Assembly (NCBI GenBank): GCA_017864995.1
Contig: GCA_017864995.1_4097.1
DNA length: 64,000 nucleotides
Direction: 5' to 3' (one strand)
DNA from: a phage
The notes under the pieces are model-generated. The model was not told the DNA's origin. It made no database searches and saw only the letters and a list, made by a program, of their open reading frames with translations. Position numbers and translations under genes: made by a program. Shown here piece after piece: positions 10,748 through 12,267 of this stretch (positions within the stretch are counted from its first letter, which is position 1; each line of letters opens with the position of its first letter).

Positions 10748-10775
10748 TTGACTAAATAGTTCAGTACTGTATAAT
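10748..10775 (+). promoter_or_regulatory. repeated early promoter cassette (TTGACT-aaatagttcagtactg-TATAAT)
   Basis: Near-identical 40-bp unit also at 11169, 11480 and 12239. Confidence 0.65.
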
Positions 10776-10806
10776 GTTTGTATCTTAACTTATATGGCAA
10801 CTTGAT

Positions 10807-11172
10807 ATGTTTAGTGAATATGAAGAAGCAATAACACGCAACCTTGAAGATTCACATAACTTCCAATTTTATAATTGGGATGAACTAATGAAATTGTACT
10901 TACAGTGGGTTGAAGATGAAGAAACTTCTGAACAACGAACTGTTATGTTAAACATTTCGTTACGTAAAGACCTTAGTTCAATTAGTGTTGAAGTTATGAC
11001 ATCTTCAACTTATGCAGAAGAAGATCATAATCCCTATGTTTCAGGTACTTCCCCTGTACCAAAGACTGAAGAAGAATATTTTCAAACGAGTACTGTACAA
11101 GAACCATTATTCACTTATGAGTTCTATAAGTACTTGATTGGCAAATTCAAAAAAATGCGAATTAATTCTTGA
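10807..11172 (+). CDS. hypothetical protein, F-Q-x-S-T-V motif family
   Basis: 121 aa ORF; contains TEEEYFQTSTVQEP; stop TGA lies inside the TTGACT -35 of the next promoter. Confidence 0.65.
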   Translation: MFSEYEEAITRNLEDSHNFQFYNWDELMKLYLQWVEDEETSEQRTVMLNISLRKDLSSISVEVMTSSTYAEEDHNPYVSGTSPVPKTEEEYFQTSTVQEPLFTYEFYKYLIGKFKKMRINS

Positions 11173-11196
11173 CTAAATAGTTCAGTACTGTATAAT
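11169..11196 (+). promoter_or_regulatory. repeated early promoter cassette (TTGACT-16-TATAAT)
   Basis: ttgactaaatagttcagtactgtataatgtttgtatcttaa repeated verbatim from 10748. Confidence 0.65.
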
Positions 11197-11228
11197 GTTT
11201 GTATCTTAATAACAGAAGGTATATTGAA

Positions 11229-11468
11229 ATGAGTAAGTATTTTGTGAGTTATAGTTATAATGTATCACAAAAGGTTCCACGTGGTGATGGAATGGGCTGG
11301 TCATATGATACATATACTTTAAATGAGTCATGTATCATCGAATTGCAAGAAAAAGACCTTGACATTTTAAAAATCAAACAATATATTCTTGATGTTGAAT
11401 TGGCACATCGTACCGACAACTGTCCAGATGTAAACAACGTCAACATCTTAGTACTAACCAAAGTATAA
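11229..11468 (+). CDS. hypothetical protein
   Basis: Track ORF 11199 trimmed to ATG 11229 with GAAGG SD. Confidence 0.55.
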   Translation: MSKYFVSYSYNVSQKVPRGDGMGWSYDTYTLNESCIIELQEKDLDILKIKQYILDVELAHRTDNCPDVNNVNILVLTKV

Positions 11469-11479
11469 GATAAAAGTAC

Positions 11480-11508
11480 TTGACTAAATAGTTCAGTACT
11501 GATATAAT
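11480..11508 (+). promoter_or_regulatory. repeated early promoter cassette (TTGACT-17-TATAAT)
   Basis: ttgactaaatagttcagtactgatataat. Confidence 0.6.
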
Positions 11509-11514
11509 GAATTC

Positions 11515-11860
11515 CACAATCAGACGTATATGGTGTAAGTTACGTCGATGTAATCCAGAACAAGATCTCTGGTACTCTAGGAAGTGGTGAATGTTAACCT
11601 AGACGGGTTTGATAATTGGACGATAGGCAATTATTACTTGACTAGCAGGTTTAAACTAGAGGTGACAGTCCTTTACCAAACTGGAAAACCGGATGGACTT
11701 TTATTTAAAAGGGTAAGGCGTGGAAATATGTTTACAGTAGTTGCTTTTAGTAGCCTGTACGCCCCACGTCAAGGTAGCCGAAAGGCAAGTTAAAACGGGT
11801 GGTTATAAAGCTGAATTAACAGCGGCGTTTAAAAGCGTCACCATCCATTTTTTTAATTAA
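11515..11860 (+). ncRNA. candidate structured non-coding RNA (function unknown)
   Basis: About 350 nt driven by promoter at 11480, visibly higher GC than flanks, no convincing ORF (only a GTG-start 69 aa ORF of odd composition), multiple stems; lies in the tRNA region. Confidence 0.3.
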
Positions 11861-11870
11861 AGTTGGTGAT

Positions 11871-12242
11871 ATGAGTGTTAAAGACATTTCAAAGTATGAA
11901 GAGTTTCTTAAATCATTTTTGAATTCAGAATTAACGACCGACCATACCAATAACTGGTGTCAAGATAATCCAGGAATTCGCATTTTCAATGGATATGGTG
12001 AATCATTTCTTATAAATGACGATGAAATTGTTTTTGAATCATTTGAAGAAATAAAAAGGACAAATAACACTTTACGTGATATAATAAATAGTATAAATGC
12101 TCAATACATTACCTTCAAGCTAAGTGCTGATGCAGAAGATGAATTTCAGAAAAGCACAGTATATGAAAATGTGTTTCCACATGAATTAAATTCTGTGATA
12201 TTTAAAGTGTTGGATAAGGTTTTTTCTGAAAATAGTACTTGA
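11871..12242 (+). CDS. hypothetical protein, F-Q-x-S-T-V motif family
   Basis: 123 aa ORF; contains AEDEFQKSTVYEN; stop TGA inside TTGACT of downstream promoter. Confidence 0.65.
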   Translation: MSVKDISKYEEFLKSFLNSELTTDHTNNWCQDNPGIRIFNGYGESFLINDDEIVFESFEEIKRTNNTLRDIINSINAQYITFKLSADAEDEFQKSTVYENVFPHELNSVIFKVLDKVFSENST

Positions 12243-12267
12243 CTAAATAGTTCAGTACTGATAAAAT
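12239..12267 (+). promoter_or_regulatory. repeated early promoter cassette driving tRNA-Ser(GCT)
   Basis: ttgactaaatagttcagtactgaTAAAAT; -10 ends 6 nt before the tRNA 5' end. Confidence 0.55.

Follow-up and report, generated by a model that had tools for sequence, protein, structure and literature searches.

Repeated promoter cassettes as probable heads and shuffling sites of short protein and RNA units in an Asteriusvirus jumbo phage

Promoter-early stem-loop (PeSL) cassettes are known from T4-type phages (Arbiol et al., 2010, PMC2839356; Comeau et al., 2014, PMC4122927), and this precedent includes hybrid-cassette deletions as well as stop codons beside the -35 (PMC2839356). Among small phage RNAs, rnaC and rnaD of T4 are stable RNAs encoded amid tRNA genes. 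Leaderless tRNA genes were reportedly described in Nanoarchaeum equitans by Randau and colleagues in 2008. The leaderless tRNA genes of this organism are also mentioned in PMC10100707. In this study, we analyzed a stretch of 64,000 nucleotides (the window, to which all positions refer) from a jumbo phage of the genus Asteriusvirus (121Q/PBECO4 group), whose best matches are Asteriusvirus phages of ~350 kb. The region of interest is plastic in these coliphages, with ORFans, tRNAs and noncoding RNA, and is mosaic among 13 relatives. It carries four copies of a promoter-like cassette. Based on sequence comparison, we consider it quite likely that these copies are strong sigma-70-type promoters, each heading one short unit, and that they are also recombination sites at which the units are shuffled. 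The preliminary description of this locus had missed that the copies appear to be recombination junctions, that copy 3 is predicted to drive a structured RNA and not a protein gene, and that the palindrome in the spacer belongs to a window-wide excess of AGTACT.

The positions given earlier for the cassettes (10748, 11169, 11480 and 12239, all on the + strand) are correct, and chance is excluded as their origin: the 22-mer TTGACTAAATAGTTCAGTACTG is found at all four, with 0 expected from shuffles. The description as four near-identical 40-bp cassettes was right about the repeat but overstated the identity, since the copies fall into two subtypes after the shared 22-mer. An identical 41-mer is present at 10748 and 11169 only (0 expected from shuffles), and past the 22-mer copies 1 and 2 read TATAATGTTTGTATC whereas copies 3 and 4 read ATATAATGAATTCC and ATAAAATTAATTT. 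Subtype A1 has a 16-nt spacer and TATAAT, and subtype A2 a 17-nt spacer and TGnTATAAT/TAAAAT. Copy 1 (A1, 10748..10788, + strand) consists of the -35 TTGACT (10748-10753), a 16-nt spacer with the palindrome CAGTACTG and the -10 TATAAT (10770-10775), with a start predicted from sequence geometry at about 10782 (A). Copy 2 (A1, 11169..11209, + strand) is the same over 41 bp, with its -10 at 11191-11196 and its predicted start at about 11203. In copy 3 (A2, 11475..11508, + strand), an upstream AGTAC is followed by the -35 (11480-11485), the 17-nt spacer and TGn plus TATAAT (11503-11508), and the same geometry predicts a start at 11515/11516. Copy 4 (A2, 12234..12267, + strand) has its -35 at 12239-12244, a 17-nt spacer and TGn plus TAAAAT (12262-12267). 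No two of the four copies have related flanks. A related A1-type promoter, TTGACA-N16 (ending in CAGTACTG)-TATAAT followed by GTTTAT, lies at 28429..28456 (+ strand), and further promoters of this type are found at 43608 and 32740.

Each copy agrees with the sigma-70 consensus at 10-11 of 12 positions. In the window, TTGACT-N15-19-TATAAT occurs 10 times, always on the gene strand, against 0.24 expected, and by inspection the DNA upstream of all four -35 boxes is A-rich (GATGAAAAAGC, CAAAAAAATGCGAATTAATTC, TATAAGATAAAAGTAC and TTTTTTCTGAAAATAGTAC). The -10-proximal cassette sequence is conserved in another genus, that of RaK2. Of the earlier designation as early promoters, the promoter identity is thus well supported by sequence, while "early" is a deduction: host RNA polymerase would be expected to use the cassettes soon after infection, and we found no Asteriusvirus promoter map or 5′-end map in the literature. 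Asteriusvirus phages have a gene for an RpoD-like sigma of their own (PMC11895373), and the cassettes might in fact be read by this factor. It is possible, but we think it unlikely, that it reads them in place of host sigma-70 acting as infection begins, and that they are middle-class instead of early promoters. The promoters do show lineage-specific extra conservation around the -10, and RpoD-like sigma factors are encoded by Group 2 jumbo phages including the Asteriusvirus Sharanji (PMC11895373; PMC5259590). Against this, hexamers at 10-11 of 12 to the E. coli consensus, optimal spacing, TGn and A-rich upstream DNA are sufficient for the host holoenzyme, and in the related phage CBB, RpoD-like promoters before short ORFs have been regarded as early.

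One short unit follows each cassette: a 121-aa ORFan, a 79-aa ORFan, a noncoding stretch with a 123-aa ORFan, and tRNA-Ser(GCT). The 121-aa ORFan (10807..11172, + strand) matches phrog_34619 and the 123-aa ORFan (11871..12242, + strand) matches phrog_38341, both of unknown function; the variable 79-aa ORFan (11229..11468, + strand) has no family match. For the ORFs downstream of the cassettes there was no Pfam match, and PHROGs matches were only to families of unknown function. The -35 had been said to supply the stop codons of upstream genes. This is true for copies 2 and 4, where the 121-aa and 123-aa ORFs stop at the TGA formed by bases 2-4 of TTGACT, and the ORF 28502..28780 likewise stops at the TGA of a promoter at 28777. 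It is not true for copies 1 and 3, as the ORFs upstream of them end at 10738 and 11468, not in the -35, and the overall rate is about that of chance. Of about 19 promoter-like sites that have an ORF next to them on the upstream side, 8 provide its stop through a TGA within the -35, close to the one in three expected for an ORF entering TTGAC, and a special link between -35 and stop codon was rejected on this ground. We propose instead that, in so tightly packed a genome, any upstream ORF that reaches TTGAC in the right frame ends at its TGA.

Comparison with relatives is what suggests a second role for the copies. Every Asteriusvirus record has the cassette in 3-9 places, and at least 80% of a 43-mer query is present in 45 records. 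Among the 13 relatives, the 79-aa ORFan is found only in ph0011 and BF17. In six others it is swapped for a 70-bp mini-unit, and in WPEC3, Ecwhy_1, G17 and TH47 it is gone, leaving a single hybrid cassette whose left flank is that of copy 2 and whose right flank is that of copy 3. At this junction homology to the window stops at 11197 and restarts at 11479, and the 31-nt overlap in the relative is one shared cassette. A second hybrid, in G17 and 121Q, joins the left flank of copy 4 to the right flank of a fifth copy. At the position of copy 4, some relatives have a diverged promoter (TGGACAATAGTTTTCAGTACTGATATAAT) between otherwise identical flanks, and RaK2 has five copies of its own homogenized version, AAAAAGTG-TTGAAC-AAAAAGTTCAGTACTG-ATATAAT, before tRNAs and before the second noncoding unit described below (RNA II). 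The 121-aa gene has two allele classes in relatives, of about 98% and about 88% identity, as does the 123-aa gene, of about 97% and about 81%. In CMSTMSU and 121Q the 88% allele of one ORFan gene is paired with the 96%–98% allele of the other, and JP4 has identities of 88.7% for the 121-aa gene, 98.4% for the structured RNA behind copy 3 (RNA I), 82.6% for the 123-aa gene and 99.6% for tRNA-Ser. On these sequences, unit alleles assort independently among relatives.

We propose that recombination or conversion between the copies keeps them near-identical within a phage lineage, and that their identity lets them serve as crossover sites, so that a unit between two copies may be deleted, inserted or exchanged while a promoter is always kept. 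The mechanism of this recombination, with any circular intermediate that it may involve, is something that we infer. It could be argued that the copies are simply leftovers of recent local promoter duplications with no role in rearrangement, and that the indels arose via a homing endonuclease or illegitimate recombination. In ph0011, WPEC3, JP4 and Turkey3, the variable unit that separates copy 4 from the fifth copy does contain an HNH endonuclease gene, and several breakpoints lie away from cassettes (for example 12510, 12899 and the boundary at 11870 between RNA II and the 123-aa gene). However, two different indels in several genomes each leave exactly one hybrid cassette with parental flanks, the unrelated flanks of the four copies imply that they are not tandem duplications of a segment, and cassette identity is perfect in about 40 genomes while neighboring DNA differs by 2%–19%. 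We therefore regard leftover duplications as a very improbable explanation and retain exchange between copies as the preferred one.

Recombination may not be the only force that keeps the copies alike. The retention of CAGTACTG-TATAAT-GTTTRT across genera points to sequence-specific selection besides recombination. AGTACT is the most over-represented word of the window, with 184 occurrences against about 22 expected, an 8-fold excess, and CAGTACTG occurs 37 times against <1 expected. Codon usage was considered as the cause of the AGTACT excess and rejected, as the excess holds for each of the three frames and also for intergenic DNA. The enrichment is found in Asteriusvirus and RaK2 DNA only and not in T4-like loci, and no report of the motif was found in the literature. 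A possible explanation, which we hold only tentatively, is that the invariant spacer is an operator, in which the palindrome (T)CAGTACTG(A) beside the -10 is bound by a dimeric, AGTACT-recognizing phage protein that switches the promoters off or on. On this view, selection for the site and not recombination would account for the identity of the copies, although the operator is itself compatible with our main explanation. The constant place of CAGTACTG, 0-1 nt before the -10 in both A1 and A2, its like placement in the otherwise different promoters at 28429, 32740 and 43608 and in RaK2 promoters, and the lineage restriction of the AGTACT and CAGTACTG excess in all frames fit such a site. On the other hand, most AGTACT sites are inside genes with no promoter nearby, and thus the motif is not promoter-specific; the binding protein is hypothetical, with none known; and the half of the spacer nearer the -35 (AAATAGTT) shows the same lack of variation within a lineage but differs between lineages, which homogenization fits better than an operator does.

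Copy 3 is predicted to drive RNA I, a conserved structured noncoding RNA of about 190-200 nt (11510..11709, + strand) with 7 hairpins, 2 pseudoknots and covariation support. It is followed by RNA II (11712..11858, + strand), which ends in a Y-shaped hairpin and U7 resembling a terminator. The stretch 11509-11870 was also considered as coding and rejected because stops are present in all frames; the annotation of a 180-aa CDS in slurp01 and JP4 results from extending the 123-aa gene upstream to a GTG. At the gathering score, Rfam 15 gave no family in the window besides tRNAs, and a search of 11450-11900 up to E 10 gave only chance-level matches (E of at least 2.7). The single-sequence fold of 11515-11860 is marginal (z -1.7), and the structure of the noncoding stretch is clear only from the cross-family alignment. 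Homologues of RNA I occupy gaps left without annotation within the tRNA clusters of Bragavirus, Emmerichvirinae, Novosibvirus and Alcyoneusvirus phages, and RNA I is found among tRNA genes in PM2, Sdy006, Proteus phage 1, CC2, avDM6 and RaK2. RNA II is found in Asteriusvirus and RaK2-like phages only, with its own promoter cassette in RaK2. Pattern scans for RNA I returned only the isolates already found in viral contigs, only three Asteriusvirus- or RaK2-like contigs in metagenomes and nothing in bacterial genomes. Like rnaC and rnaD of T4, RNA I is a small RNA of unknown function amid phage tRNA genes, but it shares no sequence similarity with either. The T4 RNAs were rejected as homologues on this ground and because the T4 tRNA region gave no covariance-model match.

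Behind copy 4 lies tRNA-Ser(GCT) (12274..12363, + strand; found by ARAGORN and Rfam), with an A1-U72 pair and an encoded CCA. Counted from the end of the -10 (12267), A1 of the tRNA (12274) is the 7th base, preceded by a T at -1. The first base of the tRNA being the 7th after the -10, the predicted transcription start is the mature 5′ end, which agrees, as a matter of geometry, with the earlier claim that the start site of copy 4 is tRNA-Ser(GCT) nucleotide 1. The spacing between -10 and tRNA is the same in 9 Asteriusvirus genomes, including those with a diverged promoter. Other cassette-led tRNAs lie 9-12 nt past the -10, implying leaders of about 2-5 nt, and in RaK2 the same tRNA lies about 70 nt past its promoter, so that the zero-leader geometry is not kept. 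Initiation 7 nt past the -10 is predicted to yield the tRNA 5′ end with no RNase P cut, while read-through transcripts from upstream promoters would still need RNase P cutting. As with the leaderless tRNAs of Nanoarchaeum equitans, the promoter puts the predicted start on tRNA position 1, a purine, and RNase P would be unnecessary for that transcript. Unlike in Nanoarchaeum equitans, the prediction here, drawn from geometry, concerns a single tRNA of a virus that infects bacteria possessing RNase P, precursors probably also arise by read-through from upstream promoters, and the orthologous tRNA in RaK2 has a leader of about 70 nt.

A broader and more speculative possibility, which we rate well below our main reading, is that RaK2/121Q-type jumbo phages use the cassette family as a dedicated system for expressing and shuffling RNA genes, comprising a tRNA-Ser whose mature 5′ end is made directly by initiation, a pseudoknotted RNA family and the CAGTACTG core as one instance of a genome-wide AGTACT signal read by a phage protein. 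If this were true, there would be an RNase P-independent tRNA-Ser in a bacterial system and an undescribed pseudoknotted RNA family common to the tRNA clusters of four unrelated phage groups. Short of this, the main reading would mean that modular shuffling by promoter cassettes, known from T4-type phages, also operates in the 350-kb RaK2/121Q jumbo phages, with cassettes that, without a terminator half, also mobilize tRNA and noncoding-RNA genes. Cassette shuffling would be a concrete mechanism for ORFan and tRNA turnover among therapy-candidate phages, and the cassettes would offer compact strong promoters with boundaries defined to the base. By-products of the analysis are a tRNA whose transcription is predicted to begin at the mature 5′ end, a new structured RNA that has covariation support and accompanies phage tRNA clusters, and a lineage-specific AGTACT excess.

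The comparison with PeSL shows both differences and common ground. The genome is that of an Asteriusvirus jumbo phage and not of a T4-type phage (Straboviridae), and PeSL cassettes are characterized by promoter activity and mini-circle formation shown by experiment, whereas the present ones are predicted from sequence. The terminator half is missing here. For copies 1 and 2 the search for a stem-loop gave -3.5 and -2.4 kcal/mol, no better than shuffles, and copies 3 (arms AGUACUUGAC/GUUCAGUACU) and 4 have a weak hairpin of -9.6 and -9.1 kcal/mol (z -3.5 and -2.6) with no U-run, in contrast to a cassette at 41156 with -19.1 kcal/mol (z -5.5) and U5. No + strand terminators were found in 9000-15000. 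True terminator-in-promoter cassettes are present elsewhere in the window, at 34519, 38113, 41156, 45780 and 47848. The copies here are also identical over 22-41 bp and not merely similar, and two of the four are predicted to drive RNA genes (the structured RNA and the tRNA). As with PeSL, on the other hand, the cassettes are repeated, strong sigma-70-like promoters by prediction, with consensus-like -35 and -10 and AT-rich upstream DNA, and they precede ORFans in plastic regions, the gene upstream having its stop codon at the cassette. As with PeSL too, close relatives lose, gain or replace the inter-cassette unit with one chimeric cassette remaining, and by this analogy the shuffling of units by promoter copies would proceed much as already described for T4-type phages.

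The cassette repeat is real and non-random, although it is less uniform than the four near-identical cassettes of the preliminary description. A 22-mer, TTGACTAAATAGTTCAGTACTG, lies on the + strand at all four positions named there, 10748, 11169, 11480 and 12239 (copies 1 to 4), a fourfold recurrence for which 100 shuffles gave an expectation of 0, whereas an exact search of the window for the full 41-mer, of which it forms the first 22 bases, returned 10748 and 11169 only. The copies split into two subtypes 3′ of the 22-mer. In copies 1 and 2 (subtype A1) it is followed by TATAATGTTTGTATCTTAA, giving a 16-nt spacer; in copies 3 and 4 (subtype A2) it is followed by A-TATAAT-GAATTCC and A-TAAAAT-TAATTT, respectively, each with a 17-nt spacer and a TGn extended -10, and AGTAC stands immediately 5′ of the -35 in both. 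Downstream of copies 1 and 2 lie ORFans of 121 and 79 aa, downstream of copy 3 a 360-nt stretch with stops in all frames and then a 123-aa ORFan, and downstream of copy 4 tRNA-Ser(GCT), followed by tRNA-Met and tRNA-Asn. Proteins behind the cassettes had no Pfam match, and the PHROGs they matched were of unknown function only. Three tandem overlapping paralogous 54-aa ORFs (phrog_10970; 10252..10416, 10413..10577 and 10574..10738) precede copy 1, with two or three copies in relatives.

The family is best read as promoter cassettes doubling as recombination junctions. For 13 relatives we retrieved the corresponding locus and typed each cassette by the flank to its left and the one to its right. 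The arrangement of the window (copy 2, 79-aa gene, copy 3) recurs in ph0011 and BF17. The 79-aa gene is missing from WPEC3, Ecwhy_1, G17 and TH47, where a single cassette joins the left flank of copy 2 to the right flank of copy 3; at this deletion BLAST homology to the window stops at 11197 and restarts at 11479, and in the relative 31 nt belong to both flanking blocks; these 31 nt are the one shared cassette. A 70-bp mini-unit separates copies 2 and 3 in slurp01, CMSTMSU, 121Q, JP4, Turkey3 and UE-S1. Four genomes (ph0011, Turkey3, JP4 and WPEC3) carry an HNH endonuclease gene, then a fifth copy and then a second tRNA-Ser, and G17 and 121Q have a single cassette with the left flank of copy 4 and the right flank of the fifth copy. 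In the four genomes with the extra unit (in ph0011 at locus L002, 4074-4750) the HNH enzyme is of the NUMOD4 type and the tRNA-Ser after the fifth copy is annotated with anticodon ACT; this unit is absent from the window. Identity also changes between units, with JP4 matching the window at 88.7% in the 121-aa gene, 98.4% in the noncoding stretch, 82.6% in the 123-aa gene and 99.6% in tRNA-Ser, and with CMSTMSU and 121Q combining an 88% allele of the 121-aa gene with a 96-98% allele of the 123-aa gene. These comparisons show a locus that is mosaic unit by unit. Breakpoints are also found away from cassettes, at 12510, at 12899 and at the 11870 boundary.

The cassettes themselves appear to be homogenised. 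A 43-mer recurs with 100% identity in >30 Asteriusvirus genomes, each of which has it at 3-9 places, and the adjoining DNA diverges by up to 19%. In six relatives position 4 holds a diverged promoter (TGGACAATAGTTTTCAGTACTGATATAAT) within otherwise identical flanks, which fits a conversion patch. RaK2, a Klebsiella phage, belongs to a different genus and has a homogenised cassette of its own, AAAAAGTG-TTGAAC-AAAAAGTTCAGTACTG-ATATAAT, in five copies, which stand before a noncoding unit (unit II, discussed below), tRNA-Arg, tRNA-Ser(GCT), tRNA-Ser(TGA) and tRNA-Met. Cassettes from one lineage resemble each other more closely than they do those of the other lineage, and both lineages have the -10-proximal part (GTTCAGTACTGATATAAT) in common; apparently the -10 region is under selection and, as a second force, entire cassettes are homogenised.

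The window region is 95-99% identical to Asteriusvirus jumbo coliphages (121Q, PBECO4, G17, ph0011, Ecwhy_1 and others). Scanning it for a TTGAC-type -35 plus a TAnAAT -10 gave ~30 hits for the + strand and 3 for the - strand, a bias that follows the direction of the genes in the first 49 kb. The strict motif TTGACT-N15-19-TATAAT has 10 matches where 0.24 would be expected. All this makes the window a block of small genes rich in promoters. For phage CBB, a relative, promoters of RpoD-like type that precede short hypothetical ORFs have been taken to be early ones (PMC5259590). Since the literature searched held no promoter or 5′-end map for any Asteriusvirus member, and phages of this type encode their own RpoD-like sigma (PMC11895373), "promoter" and "early" are used here as putative, sequence-based terms. 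The proposal that the -35 supplies the stop codon of the upstream gene holds for the ORFs 10807..11172, 11871..12242 and 28502..28780, but not for those upstream of copies 1 and 3. At 8 of ~19 promoter-like sites that have the end of an ORF close by upstream, the stop is the TGA within TTGAC, and 1/3 is expected for an ORF reading into the hexamer; the overlap is thus ordinary, a by-product of tight packing with no designed coupling.

E. coli RNA polymerase favours a start 7-8 nt past the -10, at a purine that follows a pyrimidine. The -10 of copy 4 occupies 12262-12267, and base 1 of tRNA-Ser(GCT) (12274..12363; ARAGORN and Rfam) is the seventh base past it, an A preceded by T. Because of this preference, A 12274 is most likely the start, and it would yield a leaderless 5′-triphosphate tRNA; that the start site coincides with the tRNA 5′ end is a sound prediction from the geometry of the site. 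The 6-nt gap is identical in nine genomes and holds also where the -35 and spacer have diverged and TATAAT replaces TAAAAT. tRNAs elsewhere that follow a cassette or a similar promoter, namely tRNA-Ser(TGA) at 10055, tRNA-Ser(ACT) in relatives and the RaK2 tRNAs, begin 9-12 nt past the -10, so that predicted leaders would be very short as a rule, with zero as the extreme; for tRNA-Ser(TGA) this implies a predicted leader of only a few bases. Within 10015-10054 a TGn-TATAAT promoter-like site ends 10 nt before that gene. The orthologous tRNA-Ser(GCT) of RaK2 lies ~70 nt past its promoter, hence the predicted zero-leader state would be derived and not essential. A consensus scan found no + strand terminator between copies 3 and 4, so transcripts that read through into the tRNA and are then processed by RNase P are also likely. 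In the literature searched, leaderless tRNAs were reported for Nanoarchaeum only. The segment 10148-10229, which has no ARAGORN or Rfam call in the window, is identical to the tRNA-Leu(taa) annotated in the 121Q record, and other relatives have tRNA-Arg(tct) at its position.

Two items are the newest and fall outside the preliminary description: the excess of AGTACT and a structured RNA. The spacer palindrome CAGTACTG (37 observed, <1 expected) is one case of AGTACT, the most over-represented word of the window (184 against ~22 expected), which is enriched in every reading frame and in intergenic DNA and also forms the stems of minus-strand terminators, GCCAGTACTnnAGTACTGGC. Such hairpins stand at 54360, 56977, 58258, 59481, 60745, 61972 and 63224, each after an A-run on the + strand, and are terminator-like on the minus strand, within a minus-strand gene block. 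Elsewhere the word extends to 14-16-bp palindromes (ATTCAGTACTGAAT), as at 13400-13413 and 13521-13536. It is 6-19-fold enriched in RaK2 loci, and no enrichment was seen in T4-like, T5-like or Aeromonas phage loci; the literature searched held no report of the motif. Given this excess, the cassette spacer may have a role at the DNA level, as an operator or otherwise. A 1.5-kb gene-free region of RaK2 (locus L014, 5900-7400) is dense in AGTACT sites and contains repeats, AATGAGAATCATTATCATT, similar to the E. coli Fur box, together with one A1-type promoter copy.

The stretch 11509-11870 behind copy 3, missing from G17, resolves by BLAST into two units. Unit I (11510-11709, ~190-200 nt) is an unannotated structured RNA, ~98% identical within Asteriusvirus, 80% in RaK2-like phages and 85-91% in unrelated Bragavirus (PM2, Pm5461, Mm5, Sdy006) and Novosibvirus (Proteus phage 1), and recognisable in Aeromonas Emmerichvirinae (CC2, avDM6). 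Throughout these phages it occupies a ~200-nt unannotated gap between two tRNA genes, with one copy per locus; no copy was found in the bacterial genomes searched. Cross-family homology begins at AATTCCACA, one base past the copy 3 -10 in the window and directly after tRNA-Gly CCA in PM2. An alignment of eight sequences supports seven hairpins and two pseudoknots, with 96.4% of cells paired and both sides changed in 15 of 46 pairs, against 1-3 in slid controls; none of 500 shuffles reached the observed score. A search of Rfam gave no match, and a relationship to T4 rnaC or rnaD was rejected for lack of similarity. Unit II (11712-11858) is also noncoding and, outside Asteriusvirus, common to RaK2-like phages only. 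Its fold has a z of -3.1, its 3′ end is a Y-shaped hairpin plus U7, and in RaK2 it is preceded by a promoter cassette of its own. The Y-hairpin also occurs, with compensatory changes, after tRNA-Ser(TGA) in RaK2 (locus L018, 3073-3125). Our working guess is that units I and II are stable RNAs released along with the tRNAs.

The closest known system is the promoter-early stem-loop (PeSL) cassette. Arbiol et al. described plastic regions of T4-type phages in which sigma-70-like promoters recur, each with a stem-loop terminator and AT-rich DNA on its upstream side; the motifs there delimit ORFan indels, one chimeric motif remains and upstream genes stop at the motif (PMC2839356). A second cassette family of the window, GGGTTGACTTCGGTCRGCCC-TTTTTGY-TATAAT (34519, 38113, 41156, 45780 and 47848, + strand), has this classical layout as a textbook terminator-in-promoter: the hairpin stem includes the -35, the U-run is the spacer of a consensus promoter, and for the copy at 41156 the folding energy is -19.1 kcal/mol (z -5.5). 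The cassettes at copies 1 to 4 show all PeSL sequence features but the stem-loop, copies 1 and 2 folding no better than shuffles and copies 3 and 4 having a hairpin that is weak (-9.6 and -9.1 kcal/mol) and lacks a U-run, and are therefore filed as a variant that functions like a PeSL. They differ in being promoter-only, in residing in a non-T4 jumbo phage and in mobilising RNA genes too; read in this way, they represent a modified form of an established mechanism, in a phage group new to it.
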